Assembly (NCBI GenBank): GCA_028724525.1
Contig: JAQYCV010000036.1
Span: forward strand, 6,269 to 70,268
Origin: Clostridiales bacterium
GTDB lineage: Bacteria; Bacillota; Clostridia; Saccharofermentanales; DTU023
Direction of reading: 5' to 3'
DNA: 64,000 nucleotides
The notes under the pieces were generated by a model. It was not told the DNA's origin. It saw nothing but the letters and a program-made list of their open reading frames with translations, and ran no database searches. Shown piece by piece: positions 6,472-34,536 of this stretch (position 1 is its first letter; each line of letters opens with the position of its first letter). The position numbers were made by a program, and so were the translations under genes.

Positions 6472-8010
6472 ATGCGTTATCTGGCAGTGATCAATTTAGG
6501 CTCTCATGAGGTATCGCTCAGCATATGCCAGCTGCGCAATCGGGAGTGCCCCCAACTTCTGGAGAAGGTCAGCAGGGCCTTGGCTTTTGGTGCGGACACC
6601 TATTCTGAGGGTGCAATTTCAGAAGAGAAAATTGTGGAGCTCATGGATGTCCTGGCAGACTTCCAGCTAAAACTCAAGGAATATCCCCATATCGAGCTGG
6701 TGGCTGTGGCCGAATCAGCTATCAGGGAGGCTGGTAACCGGCTCTTTATCCTTGACCTCATTCAGCGGCAGACGGGTCTTCAGGTCGATGTCCTCTCCAA
6801 TAATGACCAGGTCTATTATCAACTTCTGGCCCTGTCTCATAAGCTCCAGGATTTTGACCAGCTGATCGCGGAAACGACACTGGCTGTGGAGCTAGGCGCA
6901 GGCTCTATCCAATTTACCCTCTATGACCAGGGCCGGCTCCTCAGTACGCAAAATATGAAGCTCGGCTCTTTGCGGATCGCCTCTGTTCTGGAAGAGTTGC
7001 GAGAACACGCAAGTAACTTTGAGGACTATGTCCTAGAATATATTTCCGGTGACCTGGCCTACTATAAGTCTCATGAAAATCGGGTAGACCAGGTCAAAAA
7101 CCTGATCATTAATGGTGGCAATCTTTTCTATATCCGCCAGCTCGCGGGTTTGAGCGCTGGTAGCAAGATGGTTTTAAGCCAGGAGAATTTACAAAGTGCC
7201 CTAAAAACTCTCACTCGCAAAACAGGCCAAGCCTTGATCCGGGAAGACCACATTCCCTCTGAGCATGTGAAGCTCCTCTTGCCTACAGCCCTCATTGTCG
7301 GCGAGGTTTTCCGCTTTACCGGCCTCGACCGGGCCTATTTGCCCGATACCACTATGGAAGAAGGGATTATTCTTGCCTACGCCATGCGGGAAGCCCGTTA
7401 CCAGGTTCCGCATGACTTTGTCGCCGACCGCCTCAACCTGGTCAGAAGCATTTCTCAGCACTACAAGACAGACCAAGCCCACTGTGGGCAAGTTGAAAAA
7501 CTAGCCCTGCAGATCTTTGATGAGACCAAAAAGCTCCACGGCCTGGAAGCTCCTGACCGCGAAATGCTGCAACTAGCTGCTATTCTCCACAATGTCGGCA
7601 AATATATCAGCATTAGCAAGGATGACCGCAGGTCCTATGATATTGTCCGATCCTCAGAGATCCCTGGCATGTCTAATGTGGATATGGAATTTCTTGCCCG
7701 CTTAATTTATATCCATGACTTGCGTGACCTCCAGGATATGGACAAGGGCTTTGCTCACGATCGGACTAGGTCCCTCCGCCTCTTTAAACTCGCGGCCATT
7801 TTGATCTTGGCCAATGCCATGGATATCAGCCACAGGCAAAAAATTGCGCAAGTTAAGGTCCACATTAAGAAGGGAAGACCCCGTTTTAGCCTTTATTCTT
7901 CTGCGGACATCACCCTGGAACTTTGGAATCTGGAACAGGCTAAGGCCTTCTTTGATCAGGTCTTTTTAACCAATAGTGAGTTTGTGGCCCGCATACTGCC
8001 CCAAAGCTAA
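6472..8010 (+). CDS. ppx: Ppx/GppA-family exopolyphosphatase with a C-terminal HD domain
   Basis: 512 aa with an actin-like ATPase fold start (LAVINLGSHEVSLSI) and an HD region (LQLAAILHNVGKYIS). RBS GGGAGG lies upstream, and the gene sits directly upstream of ppk. Confidence 0.85.
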   Translation: MRYLAVINLGSHEVSLSICQLRNRECPQLLEKVSRALAFGADTYSEGAISEEKIVELMDVLADFQLKLKEYPHIELVAVAESAIREAGNRLFILDLIQRQTGLQVDVLSNNDQVYYQLLALSHKLQDFDQLIAETTLAVELGAGSIQFTLYDQGRLLSTQNMKLGSLRIASVLEELREHASNFEDYVLEYISGDLAYYKSHENRVDQVKNLIINGGNLFYIRQLAGLSAGSKMVLSQENLQSALKTLTRKTGQALIREDHIPSEHVKLLLPTALIVGEVFRFTGLDRAYLPDTTMEEGIILAYAMREARYQVPHDFVADRLNLVRSISQHYKTDQAHCGQVEKLALQIFDETKKLHGLEAPDREMLQLAAILHNVGKYISISKDDRRSYDIVRSSEIPGMSNVDMEFLARLIYIHDLRDLQDMDKGFAHDRTRSLRLFKLAAILILANAMDISHRQKIAQVKVHIKKGRPRFSLYSSADITLELWNLEQAKAFFDQVFLTNSEFVARILPQS

Positions 8011-26233: not shown

Positions 26234-26309
26234 GATTCATTAGCTCAGCCGGTAGAGCACCTGACTTTTAATCAGGGGGTCGAGGGTTCGAATCCCTCAT
26301 GAATCACCA
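26234..26309 (+). tRNA. tRNA-Lys (TTT)
   Basis: Acceptor GATTCAT/ATGAATC, anticodon loop CTTTTAA, 76 nt, CCA encoded. It begins immediately after the tRNA-Gln CCA. Confidence 0.9.
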
Positions 26310-26315
26310 GCTAAA

Positions 26316-26347
26316 AGCCCTGAAACTACAAAGTTTCGGGGCTTTTC
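26316..26347 (+). terminator. rho-independent terminator after the tRNA cluster
   Basis: AGCCCTGAAAC-TACAAA-GTTTCGGGGCT followed by TTTT. Confidence 0.75.
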
Positions 26348-26484
26348 CTTTTGGGCGTAATTTTCCGTATCCAATTGTCCGCGATCCCTGCGGATTTCGG
26401 TAGGCTTTTCAGTTATGCTAGCCCTTTTCCTTAGATGAATCTAAGTTTTCTGTTTTTCTCACAAGTTTGTAGCTTATGCAACAA

Positions 26485-26512
26485 TTTCTTCTTAAAAGTT
26501 TCTTCTTAAAAG
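26485..26512 (+). repeat. perfect tandem duplication of a 14-nt unit (TTTCTTCTTAAAAG x2) upstream of the adhesin promoter
   Basis: Unit 1 is 26485-26498 and unit 2 is 26499-26512, read directly from the sequence. Confidence 0.9.
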
Positions 26513-26539
26513 TTGAAGCTAGGAAAGTCATGCTATAAT
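26513..26539 (+). promoter_or_regulatory. candidate extended -10 promoter for the surface-protein gene
   Basis: TTGAAG (26513-26518), a 15-nt spacer, then TGcTATAAT (26531-26539). Confidence 0.45.
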
Positions 26540-26560
26540 TGCTCTCCGGACATTGTTGTA

Positions 26561-26577
26561 TTTTTTTTTTTTTTTTT
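26561..26577 (+). repeat. T17 homopolymer tract between the candidate promoter and the RBS of the surface-protein gene
   Basis: 17 consecutive T counted at 26561-26577. Confidence 0.95.
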
Positions 26578-26616
26578 GTACATTTAGATACTTATATAAA
26601 TAGGGAGAGGAACTTC

Positions 26617-29600
26617 ATGAGAAAGACAAGACACAGTAAAGGACATCTTAGAATCATTACAGCACTCTTGCTGGTGATCCTTATGGCTTTTTCCATCCTG
26701 CCATTGAGCGCTTTTGCTATGGATGCAGACCAGAAAAATACGGAAATCGCGCCTAATTCAGAAGAACTGGCCGGACTTGGAGACCAGGATGACGACACGA
26801 ACAAGAAGTCTGAGGACAAGTCTGGCGTTGATGCTGGCGACAGCAATGCGTCAACAGGCAAAGACGAAAACAAGCCTGAAACTCCAGCTGAAGAAGAGGG
26901 AGAGCAAAAGGAATCTTCCGATAAAAAGCCAGAAACCAATCTAGTCGAAAGCTCGGATGTTGATAAAAAAGACGGTGCTAGCAAGGATAGAGAAGCCTGG
27001 AAAAAGGCCTTGGAAGAAAAGCTGAAGAAAGGGTCCAAAGAGGATCCTGATATCCAACTCTTCAGTATTATCCAGCCCACGAAGCCCACCTACACCTACA
27101 TTTTCAAGGTAGACGATACTGAATACGACAAGCAGATTGTAAAGAATGGAGAAAAGCTCTTAGAGCCGGAGACCCCCGAGAAAGCTCATCATCGTTTTCT
27201 GGGCTGGCAACAAGAGAACCCTGAAGGCAGTGGTAACTATGTCGATTTCGATTTCAGCGAACCCATCTCAATAGCAGAAGATGCCACAAGTCAGGAAATC
27301 GAATTAGTGGCTAACTTTGAAGAGGTCTACTATGTCTACTTCATGTGGCCCCGGCAGGGTGAGGTTAAAGAGGAAGACAAAGATAAGTATGAAGTAATAG
27401 CCTCTCACGAAGGTAAGCCGGGTGAATCCATTAAAACAACAGATATTATTTCCCCCGATATGATGTTCCACGATATTATTTCTCCTGAACTGGAGGGACA
27501 GGAATTTGAGGGCTGGTACAAGGATAAAAAACTCACAGATGCGTGTGCTGATCCTTTAATTATAGGAAACGAAGACATCACCCTCTGGCCCAAGTTCCAG
27601 CCGACCGGCTATTGGCTGCACTTTTTCCCGGGTGAAGGTGCTTCTACTGTTATCTCACAATTTGTAAAGCGGAATAGCACACCTGCTATACCTGACCCTA
27701 CAAGGTTTGGCTATACTTTTAAACACTGGTCTTCCTCAAAAGATGGTCCTGAATTTGACTTTGCACAAGAATTAACTAAAGACACCGACCTCTATGCTGT
27801 TTGGGACCTCGCAAAAGCTAAATACACCGTCGTTTTTTGGAAGCAACGTGCAACTGACGACAAGAATGCACCCAATGATCAGAAAACCTACGATCTTGTA
27901 GAAGTGTATAAAGACGTTAGAGAAGGAACAACAGATGCCATAGTGCGCCCAACAAATGAGGACGAAAACTGGGCTAATACAAAAGACGAATTCCAGCACT
28001 TCCACTATAACTCTGAAAACTCTAAAGAAGTTATAGTCAAGCCGGATGGTTCGACAGTCCTCAATGTTTACTATGACCGTGATCTTTTTTATATCAAATT
28101 ACACTTTAGAGATGAGTCTGGACTATATCCCGATGATAAGGTTAAAACTATAACTGGACTCTACGGATCTGTTTTAATGGAAGGGACTCCTGACTATAAG
28201 ATTGCCTACGAAAGTGATGCCAGTGTTGGTAAAGATGACTGGCAGTATATGTGGTCGGGGAGTAAGGAAAAACCAAAACCCTCAATAAAACTAGATGAAC
28301 AAAATAAACCAGTTGAACCAAATAAACCAGATGTACGGGGCTTCCCCCTAACCTTTCGCTTTGAAGGCCCCAACTACGATTTTGGAAATGTGACGAAAAC
28401 AGACAAAGAGAACGATACAGCACACTTGTATCAAAGGCCTGATACCCCTGCCAACTTAGTTAATTGGATAGATTTTCAACGGCTAAATGGCAAGTACCCA
28501 GATGTAAATGACGGATTTGATGCGGATGAAACGTCGATAGGCGTTTATGGCACTTATTACCCGAACCTAGGTGTATACAAAGGCTTTACTCTGGCTTTTT
28601 TCAGTAAAAAAAATGAACCAACTGAGGATGAATGGGAGAGCTTTGCAGGAAAAACGGAGATAGATACGACGGGCTCAGAACAACATAGGTTTCGCATTAG
28701 AGCAAGTAGAAACGAATACAAGCTGACTTTCCGGAATTATAATGAAACCATAACCTCTAAAACTCTGCTCTATCAAGAACCTTTGAAGGGTTATTCTTTT
28801 ACCCCTAGCAGACCTGAGCACTTACCTGACTACTACGGGTTTAAGGGTTGGTACAAGAATTATAAAGATGGCGAATTCACAAACAAATGTGATTTTGACA
28901 AAGAAACCATGCCCTATAACGATATGGTCCTTTTTGCCAAATGGGGACCCAAGAGCGATGAAGATACGATGGCTATAGCCTATTGTAGTAAGCTGGGTGG
29001 GGACAAGAAAACATTAACTACGGAGTATGGGGACATAATTGAAAAAGAATCCCTGCCAAAAGTTGTCAGAGAGGATGGAACCCTAATCCAAGAAGGTGAT
29101 GCAGACTATCTCGTCAAAATCCCTAATAGTGCCCAATGGATAGGCTGGACAACAAAGGATGCCGAGGGAAAATACCAGCTTTATTCTTTTGGCCAAGCGG
29201 TTTACAAAAGGACTGAGCTTTATCCCTACTATATCGAGAAGGGCCTGTACACTGTTACTTATCATTACCCTGGGAACGATGGCAGTGAAAAGAACAAGAT
29301 AGATCCTAAGACCTACACAAAGCACTCCCAGGCTGATGTCCTCCCTTGGCCTCCTGACGGTAAAGTTCCAGAAGGCAAGATCTTCTTAGCCTGGACTACC
29401 AATAAGGAGGTGAGCGACAAATCGGCAGTCCCGGTAGCTTCGACTTCATCAGATTCTATGCAGGTTGGCCAAGCCTCTGAATTCAAGCTGTTTGCCACTT
29501 CTATGGCCGCTGTAGCTGCAAAAAGTGGCTATACGCCAAAAGATGCCATCGTCGTGGAAAATAATGTAGATTTCTACCCTGTGTTTGGACCTATCCCCGA

Positions 29601-30645
29601 GGAGGTTCAGATTACTTATGACGGCAACGGGGGAGAATTACCTGGTGGCGCTAATACCGTCAAATTTGATCCTGTCGCTAACAATAGCCTGCTCAAGATC
29701 TTAGATAATACGGAGGCTGACGGCCTCGGCTTTAAACGTACAGTTCAACTTAGCTCTGGTCCCCATGCTTGCGAATTCAGGCTCTGGGAGTATACACGCA
29801 AGGGTAAAACCTATAAGACTAAGCCCGGTGATGAATACACCTTGGACAGTGAGGATCCTAATAACAATGTCCTTAGAGCTGTATGGGCCAAACCTATAGA
29901 AATCAAGGTTACCACTGTTTGGGAAGACCAAGATAACAAGGCTAAGAAGCGGCCTGATCACCTAGATGTTCAGCTACGCAGAGATGGTACCGATCTTGGT
30001 GATCCTCTCAAGTTAAATCCGGATGTAAAATGGCAGGGCTGGTTTGGTCAGGATGGCGACCTCTTAGATATCGACGAAGCTTGCAATCCGTATACATACG
30101 ACATAGTAGCCCCCGATGTCACAGGCTATAAGAAAACTGTAAAGGGAGATGTGAAAAATGGCTTTACCATTAGCTACACCCTGCCAGTTGAGCCAAGTCC
30201 AGAGGGACGGAAGTACGTCGTCATAGTCGACCCCAATGGGGGTGTCTGGCCCGATGGGAGTTCAGAGAACTTACGCTACTTATTTGACGGAGGCGATATC
30301 TTTACGTTACCCGAACCCCCAAGCAAGGCAGGCCATGTCTTCGACTATTGGCAAGGGTCTCGCTACAACCCCGGTGACGAGTATGTCGTCACGGAAGACC
30401 ACTACTTCTTAGCCATTTGGAATCCGACAGAAGTACCTGAAATACGGGTGCCGATTCCAGTCGGTGGACAGACGAGCACCCCAAGCCCCTCCCGGCCTAC
30501 TCCGATGCAGGCCACACCGGTTCCTGCACAAGTCGTAGCCCTACCCCGGACCGGGGAATCCAGGCTGGAAAGCTACAGTTTATCTGCCAGCCTAGGCTTG
30601 CTGGCCGGTGTCCTAATCTTGTTGAGGAAAAAGTATAAAGCTTAG
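26617..30645 (+). CDS. LPXTG-anchored cell-wall surface protein with multiple Listeria-Bacteroides (Flg_new-type) repeats and a Cna-B-like domain
   Basis: Signal peptide MRKTRHSKGHLRIITALLLVILMAFSILPLSAFA (ATG 26617, RBS GGGAGAGG). Repeats recur with the pattern F.GW...F.F....DL.A.W, for example GYTFKHWSSSKDGPEFDFAQELTKDTDLYAVW. VTTVWEDQDNKAKKRPDHLDVQLRRDG is Cna-B-like. The C-terminus has LPRTGE, a hydrophobic helix, then RKKYKA. Confidence 0.85.
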   Translation: MRKTRHSKGHLRIITALLLVILMAFSILPLSAFAMDADQKNTEIAPNSEELAGLGDQDDDTNKKSEDKSGVDAGDSNASTGKDENKPETPAEEEGEQKESSDKKPETNLVESSDVDKKDGASKDREAWKKALEEKLKKGSKEDPDIQLFSIIQPTKPTYTYIFKVDDTEYDKQIVKNGEKLLEPETPEKAHHRFLGWQQENPEGSGNYVDFDFSEPISIAEDATSQEIELVANFEEVYYVYFMWPRQGEVKEEDKDKYEVIASHEGKPGESIKTTDIISPDMMFHDIISPELEGQEFEGWYKDKKLTDACADPLIIGNEDITLWPKFQPTGYWLHFFPGEGASTVISQFVKRNSTPAIPDPTRFGYTFKHWSSSKDGPEFDFAQELTKDTDLYAVWDLAKAKYTVVFWKQRATDDKNAPNDQKTYDLVEVYKDVREGTTDAIVRPTNEDENWANTKDEFQHFHYNSENSKEVIVKPDGSTVLNVYYDRDLFYIKLHFRDESGLYPDDKVKTITGLYGSVLMEGTPDYKIAYESDASVGKDDWQYMWSGSKEKPKPSIKLDEQNKPVEPNKPDVRGFPLTFRFEGPNYDFGNVTKTDKENDTAHLYQRPDTPANLVNWIDFQRLNGKYPDVNDGFDADETSIGVYGTYYPNLGVYKGFTLAFFSKKNEPTEDEWESFAGKTEIDTTGSEQHRFRIRASRNEYKLTFRNYNETITSKTLLYQEPLKGYSFTPSRPEHLPDYYGFKGWYKNYKDGEFTNKCDFDKETMPYNDMVLFAKWGPKSDEDTMAIAYCSKLGGDKKTLTTEYGDIIEKESLPKVVREDGTLIQEGDADYLVKIPNSAQWIGWTTKDAEGKYQLYSFGQAVYKRTELYPYYIEKGLYTVTYHYPGNDGSEKNKIDPKTYTKHSQADVLPWPPDGKVPEGKIFLAWTTNKEVSDKSAVPVASTSSDSMQVGQASEFKLFATSMAAVAAKSGYTPKDAIVVENNVDFYPVFGPIPEEVQITYDGNGGELPGGANTVKFDPVANNSLLKILDNTEADGLGFKRTVQLSSGPHACEFRLWEYTRKGKTYKTKPGDEYTLDSEDPNNNVLRAVWAKPIEIKVTTVWEDQDNKAKKRPDHLDVQLRRDGTDLGDPLKLNPDVKWQGWFGQDGDLLDIDEACNPYTYDIVAPDVTGYKKTVKGDVKNGFTISYTLPVEPSPEGRKYVVIVDPNGGVWPDGSSENLRYLFDGGDIFTLPEPPSKAGHVFDYWQGSRYNPGDEYVVTEDHYFLAIWNPTEVPEIRVPIPVGGQTSTPSPSRPTPMQATPVPAQVVALPRTGESRLESYSLSASLGLLAGVLILLRKKYKA

Positions 30646-30670
30646 GAAAGCTTAATCAATCAGCATAAAA

Positions 30671-30702
30671 GGGGCTGTCTTCTGGTGAGACAGCCCCTTT
30701 TC
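30671..30702 (+). terminator. rho-independent terminator of the surface-protein gene
   Basis: GGGGCTGTCT-TCTGGTG-AGACAGCCCC followed by TTTT. Confidence 0.8.
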
Positions 30703-30880
30703 CTTGCTACGTTAGATAAGGGCGAGGGCTACTGTAAATAACGACCTTTTAGGACTTCACTTTTACGTGATCTTTGAACAAAGCAAGTCTTAGAAATGCA
30801 AAAGGGCTCCAGTGTACACCAGAGCCCTCACCCGTAGAGGGTTTGTCTTTTAAAATGTCCGCATGGGACTTTGTAGTATC

Positions 30881-31836
30881 ATTCTAAGCCCTGGTTCAAT
30901 TAATTGTCAACTTAACTTTACATTTTTTCTTTCAATTTATTATGTGTCAAAAGATCTATGATTGCCTTATCTATTTTGTCTAATGATGTATCAGAAAGAG
31001 ATATTCCAGATAGGCTATCTTCCTTATAGAGTGGGTTATATATTCTTAGCTTCGATATTGTGACAATCTGATTGACAAGAGCAATGCTTCCATACTTCAT
31101 TCGTTTCAGCTCTGTATTATACTTGCTTGCTTCTTGTAATCTGCCTCTAGCTGTCTCAATTTGTTTCGATGCTTTTTGGAAGCATAGCAATACATCACTA
31201 TCCGTAGGGTCATTTTGGGTCATTTTTTTTATCTGCTTGTAATTGTTGAAGTTGTTCAGAGCAAATGTCGATAATGTGCTCGTTTTCATCTTGAATGTTT
31301 TTAGTCTTAAGATATAGCTTTTGTTGCAAATCATTCCCTATATAAATGCTTCCTTTAGGGAGGTTATTTAAGTCATGCTTCGGTTTTTGTGATGTAAGTG
31401 GGATAACTTGAACAACTCTCTGTCTTTTACCTGAATCACTTAAAACAACACAATAGTGCAAGCCACCTTGTTCGCTTCCAATGCGAAAGCCTAAATGTGC
31501 TTTTATCACTGCCCCACGTTTAAAAGTAGCGAATTGTTCAACCTCTCTTTCTTTGCGCATAAATTTTGTGTAATCTTCAATCCAATAGGCCAATTTATCA
31601 GCAAGCATGGGATCTTGAGTATCAATGGTCTCTTCAAGAAAAAGTCGAAGGGTCTCAATACTTTTATTGCAATGCTGTTTAATGTCTTCCTTTGATTTTC
31701 GGATGCTCATAATTTTAATACCTGGTCATAGTGGTCAGAGAGTGTTAATAATTGATTCTTCTTGTGAAAAAATAGTGTAGTACTCAAGGCTATCTCGTTT
31801 AGAGGGCTATTTTTGCCGCCAGATTCTAAGCCTGGT
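30881..31836. mobile_element. AT-rich islet of about 0.93 kb bounded by 15/14-nt direct repeats at the 3' end of ogt (candidate integrated cassette or remnant; no recombinase gene)
   Basis: DR1 is ATTCTAAGCCCTGGT (30881-30895) and DR2 is ATTCTAAGCCTGGT (31823-31836). DR2 includes the ogt stop codon (31826-31828). Hand counts of sampled 60-nt lines gave about 22% and 43% GC inside, against about 70% just outside. Confidence 0.55.
30918..31710 (-). pseudogene. extended MazF/PemK-fold toxin-like gene split by a frameshift in an A8 run (track ORFs 31210-31710 and 30918-31334)
   Basis: ORF1 carries the first half of the fold: FKRGAVIKAHLGFRIGSEQGGLHYCVVLS...VVQVIPLTSQ. ORF2 carries the second half: YGSIALVNQIVTISKLRI...GISLSDTSLDKIDKAIIDLL. 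For comparison, B. subtilis MazF reads VKRGDVY..GSEQGGVRPVLV..AAITAQ..DSVILLEQIRTIDKQRL..MMDKVDEAL. The frames meet at the coding-strand A8 run (31223-31230), and an A7 run would give one 263-codon ORF. Confidence 0.6.
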
Positions 31837-32938
31837 AGTTAAACATTTCCAAGTTGAGCAGGCGGTCTTTCATCTCCACGCTGCCTCCGAAACCAACGAG
31901 CTGGCCGTCTTGGCCAATAACGCGGTGGCAGGGGATGAGGAGGCCCAAGGGGTTGGCGGCGCAGGCGCGACCGACCGCCCGGGCATAGGCTGGAGCCTTT
32001 TCAGGGCCCACGATCTTAGCCGCCAAATCTCCATAGGACCAGGCGGTGCCGTAGGGGATCTCTTTCATGGTTTCCCAGACTTGGCGTTGGAAGGGAGTGC
32101 CCTTGATGATTTTATACGGCAGGTCGAAATTTCTAGTCTCCCCCGCCAAGTAAGCGGTTACTTGCTTTTCGGCCTCCCGGAGGAGGGGAGAATAGCTGAT
32201 CCTGCCCATTGGGGAGTCGGATGAGGGTTCTGCTTGGCCTTGGGGCAGGGTCCCTGGCTGATAGCGGCCGTCGGCATCCAGTAAGCCTAGGTCATTGAGG
32301 AGGAAGGCAGGAGGGCCTGGAGAAAAAACTTCTTGGGGCTGGATGAAATCCACACCGGTAAGATAGGCATGCTGCCTGTCTTCATGTAAAATGATGCCAA
32401 AGTTGTGGAAGGGCACATGGATGAAGGAAGAGGAGAGGGCCAGGCGGCGGAGATAAAAGCCCCACTTGGCTTGGGGCCAGGGACCTGGGCACCAGGCCTT
32501 GCACCAGCACTGGAGGCCTGCCTCTTCCAGCTCCTTTAACATTTCGGCCTCCGGCGGCTTGGAGCCTTGGAAGGTCACGGATAAGTCATACAGTTCCGGG
32601 AAGTAGTTAAAAAGATCTTGGCAGAGGACTAGGCAGTCTTCTGCACTTAAGTTCGCATCTTGTTTTGGATATACGAGGACGCGCGTACCGCTGGTCATAT
32701 GAGCTTCTGCCTGCAAAAGTAGTAAGTTTTCCTGGCCCTGGTCAGATTGCCAGATAAAAATACTATCGAGGGGACAAGACTCCTGCCACTGACGCATGAA
32801 AGCTTGGCGCTGGCGGTTAGTTTTCAGACAGGATACAGGCAAGGGATAGGGCTTCAGAGCCTTATTATCCTTGAGCAGTAGTTTGATCAGTTTATGGCCG
32901 GACCCAGGTTTCATAGCGGAATTGTATCTCTCCTTCAC
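31826..32938 (-). CDS. ogt: methylated-DNA--protein-cysteine methyltransferase with a ~200-aa extra N-terminal region
   Basis: The C-terminal TPFQRQVWETMKEIPYGTAWSYGDLA...ANPLGLLIPCHRVIGQDGQLVGFGG contains the PCHR active site. The N-terminal region has no motif I recognise. Either candidate start overlaps the folA 3' end. Confidence 0.8.
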   Translation of the reverse strand: MKERYNSAMKPGSGHKLIKLLLKDNKALKPYPLPVSCLKTNRQRQAFMRQWQESCPLDSIFIWQSDQGQENLLLLQAEAHMTSGTRVLVYPKQDANLSAEDCLVLCQDLFNYFPELYDLSVTFQGSKPPEAEMLKELEEAGLQCWCKAWCPGPWPQAKWGFYLRRLALSSSFIHVPFHNFGIILHEDRQHAYLTGVDFIQPQEVFSPGPPAFLLNDLGLLDADGRYQPGTLPQGQAEPSSDSPMGRISYSPLLREAEKQVTAYLAGETRNFDLPYKIIKGTPFQRQVWETMKEIPYGTAWSYGDLAAKIVGPEKAPAYARAVGRACAANPLGLLIPCHRVIGQDGQLVGFGGSVEMKDRLLNLEMFNYQA

Positions 32939-33395
32939 TTAAGTAAGGCCCCTGGTCTTTTAGGACGAAACCACTGGCCTCGAGGTCTGGGAAGTGGACA
33001 TCTGCTGGAAAGACCTGGTCTATCCGGGTCAGCTCCACACGGTGGGTATCAGCGAGCAGGGTTTCATAGACAGAAGCTCCCCCGATGATGCAAAAATCAT
33101 CTTCCGTACGGCCTTCCTTTTTGAGTTCTGTAACGCGTTTTTCAAGTTCTTCAATCGAACGGACAATTTCTGCGCCGGGGACATCCTCTGGTCTCAATTT
33201 GCGGCTAAGGATGATATTTAAGCGACCAGGTAGGACTTTTTGCCCTGGGAAGGTTGCCAGGGTCTTGGCCCCATAAATTAAGACCTTACCCATGGTCATT
33301 TGCTTGAAGCGTCTTAAATCTTGGCGGATGGGTTGGAGCAACTGTCCATCCCGGCCAATTCCGTTAGCTTGATCAATGGCGACAATAGCAATCAT
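32892..33395 (-). CDS. folA: dihydrofolate reductase
   Basis: MIAIVAIDQANGIGRDGQLLQPIRQDLRRFKQMTMGKVLIYGAKT...IIGGASVYE. Confidence 0.9.
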   Translation of the reverse strand: MIAIVAIDQANGIGRDGQLLQPIRQDLRRFKQMTMGKVLIYGAKTLATFPGQKVLPGRLNIILSRKLRPEDVPGAEIVRSIEELEKRVTELKKEGRTEDDFCIIGGASVYETLLADTHRVELTRIDQVFPADVHFPDLEASGFVLKDQGPYLSEGEIQFRYETWVRP

Positions 33396-33431
33396 GAGAA
33401 GTCCTTTTCTATTCGTATATGAAATCCTGCC

Positions 33432-34259
33432 TTAAATTGCGACAGGGATATTTTTGAGTTGAGGGCCATGCTGGTAATTTTCCAGCTGGAAGTCCTCAGG
33501 CTTAAAGTCGTAAAATCTTTGGACATCAGGATTGATGACCAGTTTGGGAGCCGGATAGGCCGGCCGGGTAAGCAGGTCCTCAACCAGGGGAATGTGCCGG
33601 TCATAGATATGGGCATCAGCAATGACGTGTACGAGTTCTCCCACTTCTAGCTGGCATTCCCGGGCCAGCATATGGAGGAGAATAGCATATTGGACGACAT
33701 TCCAGCCATTGGCGACCAGCATATCCTGACTTCTTTGATTCAAAAGTCCAGAAAGCCTGCCCTGGTCCACATGGAAGGTCATGGAGTAGGCACAAGGGTA
33801 GAGGGCCATTTCGGGGAGGTCCTGGATGTTATACATATGGCAAATCAGCCGGCGGCTTTCAGGATTCTCTTTCAGATCTTTTATCAAGCGGTCAACCTGG
33901 TCAAATTCCCCGTCTGGGTACTGGGTTTTGCGCCCCAATTGGTAGCCGTAGGCCTTGCCAATCGTGCCGTCTTCCTTGGCCCAGGCATCCCAAATACGGG
34001 AGTTAAGATCGGCTAGGCGGTTAGATTTTTTTTGCCAAATCCATAAAATTTCGTCAATACACTTGTGCAGGGGAACAGGCCGTAGGGTCAAGATAGGGAA
34101 CTCTTTTTGTAGGTCATAGCGGTTGACCAGGGCAAAGACTTTTTTACTACGGGCGGGTGTGCCATCTGGCCAAACTGTGCGCACTTTGCCTGTCTGCCAA
34201 ATGCCCTGGTCCAGAATTTGGCGGGCGCTCGCTTGGAACACTTGATCAGCATAGCTCAT
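33432..34259 (-). CDS. thyA: thymidylate synthase (ThyA, B. subtilis ThyA-like subclass)
   Basis: The catalytic Cys lies in LYPCAYSMTFHV, followed by NQRSQDMLVANGWNVVQY and DAHIYDRH. I prefer the MSYADQVF start (34259) over the track GTG 34292 because it matches the ThyA N-terminus. Neither start has a clear SD sequence. Confidence 0.85.
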   Translation of the reverse strand: MSYADQVFQASARQILDQGIWQTGKVRTVWPDGTPARSKKVFALVNRYDLQKEFPILTLRPVPLHKCIDEILWIWQKKSNRLADLNSRIWDAWAKEDGTIGKAYGYQLGRKTQYPDGEFDQVDRLIKDLKENPESRRLICHMYNIQDLPEMALYPCAYSMTFHVDQGRLSGLLNQRSQDMLVANGWNVVQYAILLHMLARECQLEVGELVHVIADAHIYDRHIPLVEDLLTRPAYPAPKLVINPDVQRFYDFKPEDFQLENYQHGPQLKNIPVAI

Positions 34260-34460
34260 AGGAGGAACCTCGAATGATAATAAATAAGGCACTTCTCAAA
34301 ACAAAGTCCTAGCAAGCTTTGATGGGCCTTTATTAGGTCTTTTTAGGCCCTTGTTGGGCGCTTTGTTTTGAACAAGCCTGGCTTCAAGAATCAATAAAAT
34401 GATTATAGTTTAGGCCAACTTGCATTTCAACTTATGAACAGCTAGAATTTATCCGTATTT

Positions 34461-34536
34461 CGGGGCGTAGCTCAGGTGGTAGAGCGCTTGGTTCGGGACC
34501 AAGAGGCCGCTGGTTCGAGTCCAGTCGCTCCGACCA
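34461..34536 (+). tRNA. tRNA-Pro (CGG)
   Basis: Acceptor CGGGGCG/CGCTCCG, anticodon loop TTCGGGA, 76 nt, CCA encoded. Track ORF 34449-34706(-) is a shadow over it. Confidence 0.9.

Follow-up and report, generated by a model that had tools for sequence, protein, structure and literature searches.

A disrupted MazF-like toxin gene and a small structured RNA gene beside ogt in a Clostridiales genome: a probable decayed module of phage lysogeny regions

We analysed a 64,000-nucleotide stretch of DNA from a Clostridiales bacterium (assembly GCA_028724525.1, contig JAQYCV010000036.1, positions 6,269 to 70,268 of the forward strand), here called the window, and in particular an AT-rich islet that adjoins the 3′ end of ogt. 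On its minus strand the islet carries a disrupted gene for a long toxin of the MazF/PemK family (30918–31710), followed by a gene for a small structured RNA of about 80 nt (30796–30874). The initial annotation had explained the islet as a 0.93-kb cassette inserted at the ogt stop codon between short direct repeats. The best explanation overall, to which we give a probability of roughly 0.75, is that it is a decayed two-gene module from the lysogeny region of a temperate Firmicutes phage, in which the RNA would neutralise the toxin.

The toxin gene was identified from the PemK_toxin profile, from its homologues and from the AlphaFold2 fold. In the window it is split into two overlapping open reading frames (ORFs). 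The first (31210–31710, 166 aa) encodes the first half of the MazF fold, preceded by an N-terminal helical hairpin, and covers positions 1–50 of the profile, scoring 30.2 bits on its own, and the second (30918–31223, 101 aa) encodes the remainder of the fold and covers profile positions 54–108. The earlier description of the cargo as one toxin-like gene thus holds as far as there is a single gene of this family, but not as to its being in one piece. A 10-bp sequence, GGGTCATTTT, stands twice in perfect tandem at 31207–31226 (family D11), and this duplication causes the frameshift. Removal of one copy gives a 260-aa protein with a PemK_toxin (PF02452) score of 41.1 bits, against a cutoff of 23.1, and this reconstruction matches 64 homologues, mostly of 200–300 aa and mostly over more than 80% of its own length. 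The closest relative, locus L008, and locus L002, both from Logan assemblies, are 95% and 91% identical in nucleotide sequence over the aligned region; they have the same order of ogt and then toxin, lack the duplication and encode an intact 260-aa toxin. Four contigs, from NCBI and two independent Logan runs, have the truncated 166-aa product among their gene calls, and the frameshift is therefore a real allele. One further NCBI sequence, contig JAXFSZ010000015.1 of GCA_034177165.1, is 100% identical to the window. Because the duplication shifts the reading frame, the toxin is most likely inactive in this genome. A rescue of the split gene by ribosomal frameshifting was rejected on inspection by hand, as the −1 frame meets a TGA immediately and a +1 shift would be required.

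An AlphaFold2 model of the 260-aa reconstruction, made with a 58-sequence alignment, has a predicted local distance difference test score (pLDDT) of 92.6 and contains a MazF core. Along the chain, it consists of an N-terminal helical hairpin (residues 7–54), a β-barrel, an antiparallel coiled coil of about 75 residues inserted at 127–200, and C-terminal strands and a helix. The top Foldseek hits in the PDB are the MazF proteins of Staphylococcus aureus and Bacillus subtilis (E about 3e-6, template-modelling score normalised to the target 0.75–0.82), and a profile search of PDB sequences finds MazF/EndoA at about 1e-7 in two stretches, one on either side of the insertion. The sequence GGLHY aligns with GGVRP of the PDB MazF homologue 7bxy, which places the invariant His85 opposite the arginine, while Ser107 of the PLTS motif is conserved. 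The protein also matches phrog_1412 at 7e-45, a moron-category family labelled 'antitoxin mazE-like' in PHROGs, whose members include ORF020 of S. aureus phage 92 and SpyM3_0682 of Streptococcus pyogenes 315.1. PADLOC 2.0 has no model for the toxin protein and gave no match, and the toxin fragments gave only weak, sub-threshold chance matches in NCBIfam. There is no adjacent gene for a MazE/PemI antitoxin; in the window ogt lies upstream of the toxin gene and the small RNA gene downstream. In 143 loci with relatives of the toxin, the ORFs upstream of it fall into 49 clusters, which include cI-like and ImmA/IrrE-type proteins.

The helices that the toxin has beyond the MazF core, about half of the protein, invite another reading, in which the hairpin and coiled coil are a fused antitoxin or sensor by which the long MazF-like protein regulates itself, with the RNA irrelevant to its control. 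The PHROGs label would agree with this, but searches of Pfam, NCBIfam and PDB profiles with the toxin found no MazE-like match, and self-regulation would leave the near-universal, co-inherited RNA gene unexplained. We regard it as distinctly unlikely.

The RNA gene begins 8 nt past the toxin stop codon. Its near-consensus σ70 promoter lies on the minus strand at 30881–30910, with TTGACA at 30910–30905, an 18-nt spacer and TAGAAT at 30886–30881 (11 of 12 matches), and the same promoter is found at the matching position in loci L003, L005, L148 and L142 and in most loci of the family. The 5′ end of the RNA was placed from this promoter. The RNA (30796–30874, minus strand) consists of two 28-nt units and is recognised by a covariance-model match, its folding energy and the covariation within its family. 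Unit 1 is ACAAAG followed by the hairpin GUCC-CAUGC-GGAC, with a 4-bp stem (30869–30866 paired with 30860–30857) and a 5-nt loop; unit 2 is ACAAAC followed by the hairpin (A)CCC-UCUAC-GGG(U), also with a 4-bp stem (30842–30839 paired with 30833–30830) and a 5-nt loop. The units are joined by the single strand AUUUUAAAAG, of which AUUUUAAAAGACAAA is the conserved part. The window RNA folds with a minimum free energy of −28.6 kcal/mol (z = −3.25), and an intrinsic terminator of 12 pairs followed by a T-run (30802–30829, minus strand) ends it. This terminator is conserved in L003, where the changes are compensatory as read by eye, and an analogous one follows the RNA in the family loci inspected.

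The whole arrangement recurs away from ogt. In L003 and L004, which encode a toxin 67% identical to that of the window, the alignment runs from 31723 to 30801, through the toxin ribosome-binding site, the stop codon, the promoter region and the terminator hairpin. In prophage L005, with a toxin 45% identical, the stretch 30881–30831 is shared at 83%. L003 carries the other chromosomal copy of the toxin–RNA module. Before it, at 1–370, come the 3′ end of a tRNA, a terminator and the C-terminal part of an integrase of insertion sequence (IS) type (rve_2, 5.6e-05), and the gene call there fuses the rve_2 fragment in frame with the toxin ORF to give 306 aa.

The RNA family was studied in 160 loci that encode toxin relatives; metagenomes supplied 80 of them, and the other 80 were retained from 129 confirmed in IMG/VR. 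When the sequences 3′ of the toxin stop codon are anchored on the AAGAC motif, about 80% of the 96 distinct ones share one layout, with a consensus promoter before, and a terminator after, two units that an outer helix P1 usually encloses. In each unit of the family a GCNN-loop-NNGC hairpin stands between AAAACAnnG or AAGACAnnG on its 5′ side and CAGUAU on its 3′ side. For the covariation analysis, 31 distinct canonical examples were aligned with MAFFT, fitted to no structure and with the window left out (alignment A5). In this alignment, 92% of the cells are paired, versus 28–51% when the 3′ partners are slid, compensatory changes are present in 13 of 15 pairs, and none of 500 shuffles equalled this. 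The structure-fitted alignment A6 gives the same picture. A covariance model, R1, built from A5 and hence without the window sequence, has a single match in the 64-kb window, at 30830–30874 on the minus strand (27.7 bits, E = 0.0035). In 1.1 Mb of phage and metagenome loci it gives about 110 matches at E ≤ 0.05, all on the strand of the toxin and all immediately 3′ of the toxin gene except for two extra upstream copies. These are in L066 and L149, which have RNA copies both upstream and downstream of the toxin (L066, 3879–3946 and 4830–4899; L149, 1778–1832 and 2784–2860). The two units are nearly identical in several relatives, such as L065, L092 and phage 92. Other clades of the toxin, as far as their sequences were read, have different RNA motifs with the same two-repeat logic, among them the L136 type, with repeated AGAAUACGUU, and that of S. 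aureus phage 92.

Rfam 15 has no family for this RNA, and permissive thresholds gave sub-threshold chance matches only. The pemK RNA of Rfam (RF02913) resembles it in being a structured RNA tied to pemK genes in Firmicutes; however, it differs in sequence and structure, is classed as cis-regulatory, and has no match at E ≤ 1 in 30600–31900 of the window or at the RNA position in 20 loci. Its one genuine occurrence is in L159, on the opposite strand (7493–7590, minus strand, 62.9 bits), where the long MazF-like gene is 2.7 kb away, and both kinds of RNA can therefore coexist in one element. Full-text literature searches did not turn up any MazF/PemK toxin described with an RNA partner downstream, although other papers may describe one. 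The RNA may be an antitoxin of a kind not yet described.

The surroundings of the pair point to temperate phages. In 131 loci, the first ORF downstream of it is a large serine recombinase in 49 and a tyrosine integrase in 32. Upstream there is often a repressor with a cI-like helix–turn–helix and an S24 domain (30 loci) or an ImmA/IrrE metallopeptidase (24 loci). Cultured phages, namely Streptococcus phage Javan166, S. pyogenes 315.1 and S. aureus phage 92, show the order repressor, PemK-like gene, an unannotated gap of 200–310 nt and integrase, and R1 finds the RNA in the gap of Javan166 with 53.8 bits. The position between the repressor and the integrase is found in L005, Javan166, 315.1, phage 92 and 81 of the 131 loci; the window has no phage gene at all. 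The pair also stands without phage genes in L003, and it occurs behind several unrelated upstream genes. Because it recurs across phage loci beside either serine or tyrosine recombinases, the toxin gene and the RNA gene are a conserved, co-inherited unit, and one that is ordinary cargo of lysogeny modules. The initial annotation had left open whether the islet was a minimal cassette mobilised in trans or the last remnant of a larger element; the latter fits best, the module usually lying between the repressor and the integrase of a temperate phage.

A similar arrangement is known for prophage exclusion genes. The position of rexAB in phage lambda is the comparison for a toxin gene in a lysogeny module. 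Like the exclusion genes, the phage-borne toxin gene (a phrog_1412 moron) lies just after the repressor and before the integrase gene in the same direction; unlike them, the copy in the window has no phage gene beside it. The pair is a candidate for defence, in a rexAB-like position, in many temperate phages.

The same phage loci raise the question of whether the RNA, although genuine, serves something other than the toxin. It might regulate the integrase, excision or lysogeny, or be a stable 3′ element of the toxin transcript. In phages it does sit between the toxin gene and int, a second RNA family (Spy779816) occupies the same gap in streptococcal phages, and the antitoxin role is itself a prediction from sequence. 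Yet the RNA accompanies the toxin gene where int and repressor are absent, as in the window and L003, and does so across two unrelated recombinase families; by reading, the type of RNA also tracks the toxin clade (the AAGACA type, the L136 type and the phage 92 type). Furthermore, it has its own strong promoter and is therefore not just a 3′ untranslated region. Taken on this evidence, an RNA with no antitoxin role seems to us unlikely.

Spy779816, a small RNA of S. pyogenes in Rfam, lies between the new RNA and the integrase gene on the opposite strand in L176 (3247–3333, minus strand) and L177 (3311–3400, minus strand), and it scores 76.1 bits in Javan166 among the streptococcal phages. In many other loci, a GC-rich hairpin, GCCCC...GCGCCAAC...GGGGC, is found at the equivalent place.

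We now turn to the repeats on which the cassette model was built, in which 0.93 kb had integrated site-specifically at the ogt stop codon with duplication of a 14–15-nt target, and a hairpin beyond the outer repeat was the displaced ogt terminator. The repeats exist: ATTCTAAGCCCTGGT at 30881–30895 (outer) and ATTCTAAGCCTGGT at 31823–31836 (inner), the latter comprising the last ogt codons and the stop codon (CTA, 31826–31828), with which the minus-strand ORF 31826–32938 terminates in ...NYQA*. The composition falls as described, the GC content being 36.1% in 30801–31723, 54.8% in ogt and 50.5% in the whole window; the figure of about 70% given for ogt applies to 100-nt windows at its 3′ end (0.68–0.71 over the last 150 nt or so) and not to the gene as a whole. 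The 14-mer is not frequent in the window, with one exact match and three with at most two mismatches where 0.52 are expected. The hairpin too is present, as a 12-bp stem followed by a T-run at 30829–30802 of the minus strand, but it ends the small RNA of the module rather than marking the original end of ogt.

The exact core common to the two repeats is, however, only 10 nt (family D10), and the remainder requires an indel. A local alignment of the 51-nt target around the ogt stop with the following 1.1 kb scores 12, and 15% of 400 Markov shuffles score at least as high; the repeat is therefore no stronger than chance. The outer repeat is the −10 box of the RNA promoter plus 9 nt of its spacer. 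The adjoining stretch 30896–30917, which had been read as a degenerate duplicate of the end of ogt, agrees with the ogt codons in about 7 of 15 positions by eye and contains the −35 box and spacer of the promoter. The inner repeat is not conserved in L008 and L002, in spite of the same gene arrangement; there it reads GATTAGAGCC or AATTAGAGCC, and the 10-nt core is missing. Thus, the end of ogt happens to resemble the small-RNA promoter in its −10 box and spacer; the two 'direct repeats' are this chance likeness and not a target duplication.

Comparison with other genomes does not support the cassette either. The outer repeat lies within a unit that other genomes keep where there is no ogt: in L003 and L004, where the related module adjoins a tRNA and an IS fragment, homology continues through the outer repeat and a further 80 nt to the hairpin, so the repeats are not the ends of an insert, and L005 shares part of the same stretch. 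The genomes with an empty site (L001, L009 and L014) lack not 0.93 kb but 5.5 kb (26347–31823), and they contain nothing resembling 30646–30880. In them ogt is followed by 53–198 nt and then tRNA-Lys, not by the sequence to the left of 30881, as the cassette would predict. No second copy of the islet was found within the 64-kb window. A target-duplicating cassette therefore appears extremely improbable to us, even though repeats are present, roughly coincide with the drop in GC content and involve a 14-mer uncommon in the window, and even though homology to the empty-site genomes stops within about 10 nt of the ogt stop. What remains of the earlier description is a compositionally foreign patch with toxin-family cargo and with no integrase or transposase. 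More generally, short repeats at a GC boundary can arise because a promoter box resembles a gene end by chance.

The larger difference from the empty-site genomes is a lineage-specific segment of 5.5 kb (26347–31823), which is absent from L001, L009 and L014 and is best explained as a gain in the lineage of the window. These genomes were drawn from protein homologues and their contigs; a single scan of contigs gave L001 alone. Their gene order is tRNA-Pro, thyA, folA, ogt, 53–198 nt, tRNA-Lys/Gln/His, comEA, rsfS, nadD and prfB, and the window keeps the same flanking genes with the 5.5 kb added between tRNA-Lys and the ogt stop. Homology to them ends at 31824–31836 on one side and at 26320–26351 on the other, and their ogt genes are 72% (L001), 61% (L009) and 54% (L014) identical to that of the window. 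Since the C-terminus of ogt and the spacer that follows it differ in every genome compared, the exact insertion point cannot be defined. The left border of the segment is tRNA-Lys(UUU), called at 26234–26309 on the plus strand. Near the islet there is no copy of its 3′ end and no repeat of the tRNA region beyond chance matches of 7–11 nt, and the empty-site spacers have nothing in common with the insert except the tRNA-Lys terminator hairpin. Between tRNA-Lys and ogt no recombinase or transposase was found; the ORFs of at least 120 aa are the surface-protein gene described next and the split toxin gene, besides one nested ORF on the opposite strand. The segment thus resembles integrative islands that duplicate their attachment sites in being a foreign, low-GC stretch that abuts the 3′ ends of ogt and tRNA-Lys, but it differs from them in having no recombinase, no duplicate of the tRNA-Lys end, and a candidate repeat that is at chance level and inside a conserved unit.

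The rest of the segment is mainly a gene for an LPXTG-anchored surface protein of 1342 aa (26617–30645, plus strand; six Flg_new domains, Cna_B and Gram_pos_anchor in Pfam), which is convergent with the toxin module and has its own terminator at 30667–30701 (pair I4). Its GC content is 45%, compared with 36% for the toxin module and 50–55% for the flanks. The toxin module and this gene may have arrived together or separately. The opposite polarity would make the order ogt, toxin module, surface protein, tRNA-Lys the original state, deleted in L001, L009 and L014; it draws on there being just three empty-site lineages, all fairly distant (54–72% identity in ogt). But the differences of the empty genomes in ogt identity and in spacer would imply several independent, precise losses, the low GC content of the segment (36–45%) is out of keeping with its neighbourhood, and the toxin module is typical phage cargo. 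We judge such deletions quite improbable.

Within 28900–34499, the identity of the window to L008 is 100% in thyA, 81–97% in patches from folA to ogt, 97–100% in the toxin module and 50–95% in the surface-protein gene. The high identity of the toxin module was considered as a sign of recent transfer, and no conclusion was drawn, as thyA, too, shows 100% identity in a region that is mosaic throughout. Such a pattern points to frequent recombination or to assemblies that are mixed. About 40 nt before the surface-protein gene, which starts at 26617, 17 consecutive T (26561–26577) make a possible phase-variation tract; no other homopolymer in the window reaches 12 nt.

How might the two genes work together? 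We propose that an abundant small RNA would bind and neutralise a MazF-like endoribonuclease. One two-repeat RNA per toxin dimer, filling both sites of a MazF-type dimer, would be a plausible stoichiometry, and the pair might act like a type III toxin–antitoxin or abortive-infection system that protects lysogens. MazF of Escherichia coli cleaves at ACA. A protein–RNA pair of the type III kind is suggested because the toxin lacks a partner protein, the RNA consists of two ACA-bearing units behind a strong promoter of its own, the genes are co-inherited, and the RNA shows no cognate complementarity. The last point comes from a test of type I-like antisense action, which was rejected: the duplex energies of the RNA with the start region of the toxin gene were no better for cognate than for non-cognate pairs (p = 0.55). 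After the toxin gene broke, the RNA gene would remain as a harmless relic; with the toxin frameshifted, it is probably the one gene of the pair that still works in this genome.

The toxins of known type III systems share a Kid/MazF-like fold. Like the type III systems ToxIN, AbiQ-antiQ, CptIN and TenpIN, the present pair combines a protein toxin with a small RNA of tandem repeats, here two units of 28 nt; both occur in Firmicutes and on mobile elements, and here there is neither a protein antitoxin nor antisense pairing with the toxin mRNA. Type III RNAs have 1.9–5.6 repeats of 31–62 nt, and the defining layout is repeats, terminator, toxin (Blower 2012, PMC3401426). Unlike this, the RNA gene here follows the toxin gene and has its own promoter and terminator, and its units are usually enclosed by an outer helix. 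The toxin also belongs to the Pfam family PemK_toxin and not to ToxN, CptN or TenpN, with no PADLOC match and no significant NCBIfam match. By the type III criteria, the toxin is bound and neutralised by its RNA and also processes it; for the present pair such neutralisation is a prediction. Compared with the type II systems MazEF, PemIK and Kis-Kid, the toxin is a MazF/PemK member by both sequence and fold, but at 260 aa it is twice the size, with the N-terminal helical hairpin and the coiled-coil insertion, the arginine of GGxRP is replaced by an invariant histidine, no MazE/PemI gene is adjacent, and the upstream neighbours vary.

Several observations speak against the interpretation of the islet as a decayed phage toxin–RNA module. 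The window RNA has no outer helix P1, which the commonest form has, and scores only 27.7 bits with R1. Where the RNA starts, how abundant it is and whether it binds the toxin are predictions. The RNA gene is downstream of the toxin here and upstream in the known type III systems. The position of the catalytic arginine of B. subtilis MazF is taken by an invariant histidine throughout the family, and ribonuclease activity is not assured; the N-terminal hairpin and the coiled coil could instead be a built-in regulatory domain. Finally, the segment is at this site in one independent lineage only, that of the window, L008 and L002.

We propose tentatively, and at rather less than even odds, that the long MazF/PemK proteins of phrog_1412 and the two-repeat RNA downstream of them form an undescribed family of toxin–antitoxin or abortive-infection systems with an RNA antitoxin, akin to type III, of which the window would hold a decayed chromosomal copy. 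As a sequence family the protein is already catalogued (PF02452, phrog_1412); Rfam 15 and PADLOC 2.0 contain neither the RNA nor its association with the toxin gene. A widespread phage MazF-like protein, annotated as 'type II toxin', 'antitoxin mazE-like' or hypothetical, has no protein partner and is tightly linked to a covarying RNA. If the RNA is the antitoxin, the pair would be a new family with a new gene layout among type III systems, and the first with a bona fide MazF-family toxin and with the RNA gene placed after the toxin under its own promoter. It would also explain the 'orphan' MazF-like genes in prophages of S. aureus and S. pyogenes. Since an earlier survey searched for repeats upstream of the toxin (PMC3401426), this layout may have been missed.

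The neighbouring ogt gene (31826–32938, minus strand) encodes an O6-alkylguanine-DNA methyltransferase with a long N-terminal extension (Pfam PF01035, DNA_binding_1, 4.7e-28; TIGR00589, 1.2e-27); the NCBI assembly gives 362 aa, from a later start than that of the 370-aa ORF, for which an exact protein look-up returned no match. No terminator-like site was found on the minus strand between the ogt stop and the toxin start, and transcription of ogt may read through into the toxin gene. At the end of ogt there is a weak promoter-like site directed at the toxin gene (31823–31852, minus strand; TTGGAA, an 18-nt spacer, TAGAAT; 9 of 12 matches), the −10 box of which is the inner repeat and is degraded to TAGAGC in L008. 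The N-terminal extension of ogt, about 250 aa, has no Pfam domain, is kept in relatives, and overlaps the end of folA (32892–33395, minus strand). Elsewhere, DHFR and Ogt are fused in proteins of about 510 aa (P0070, P0073 and P0078), which carry PF00186 together with PF01035.

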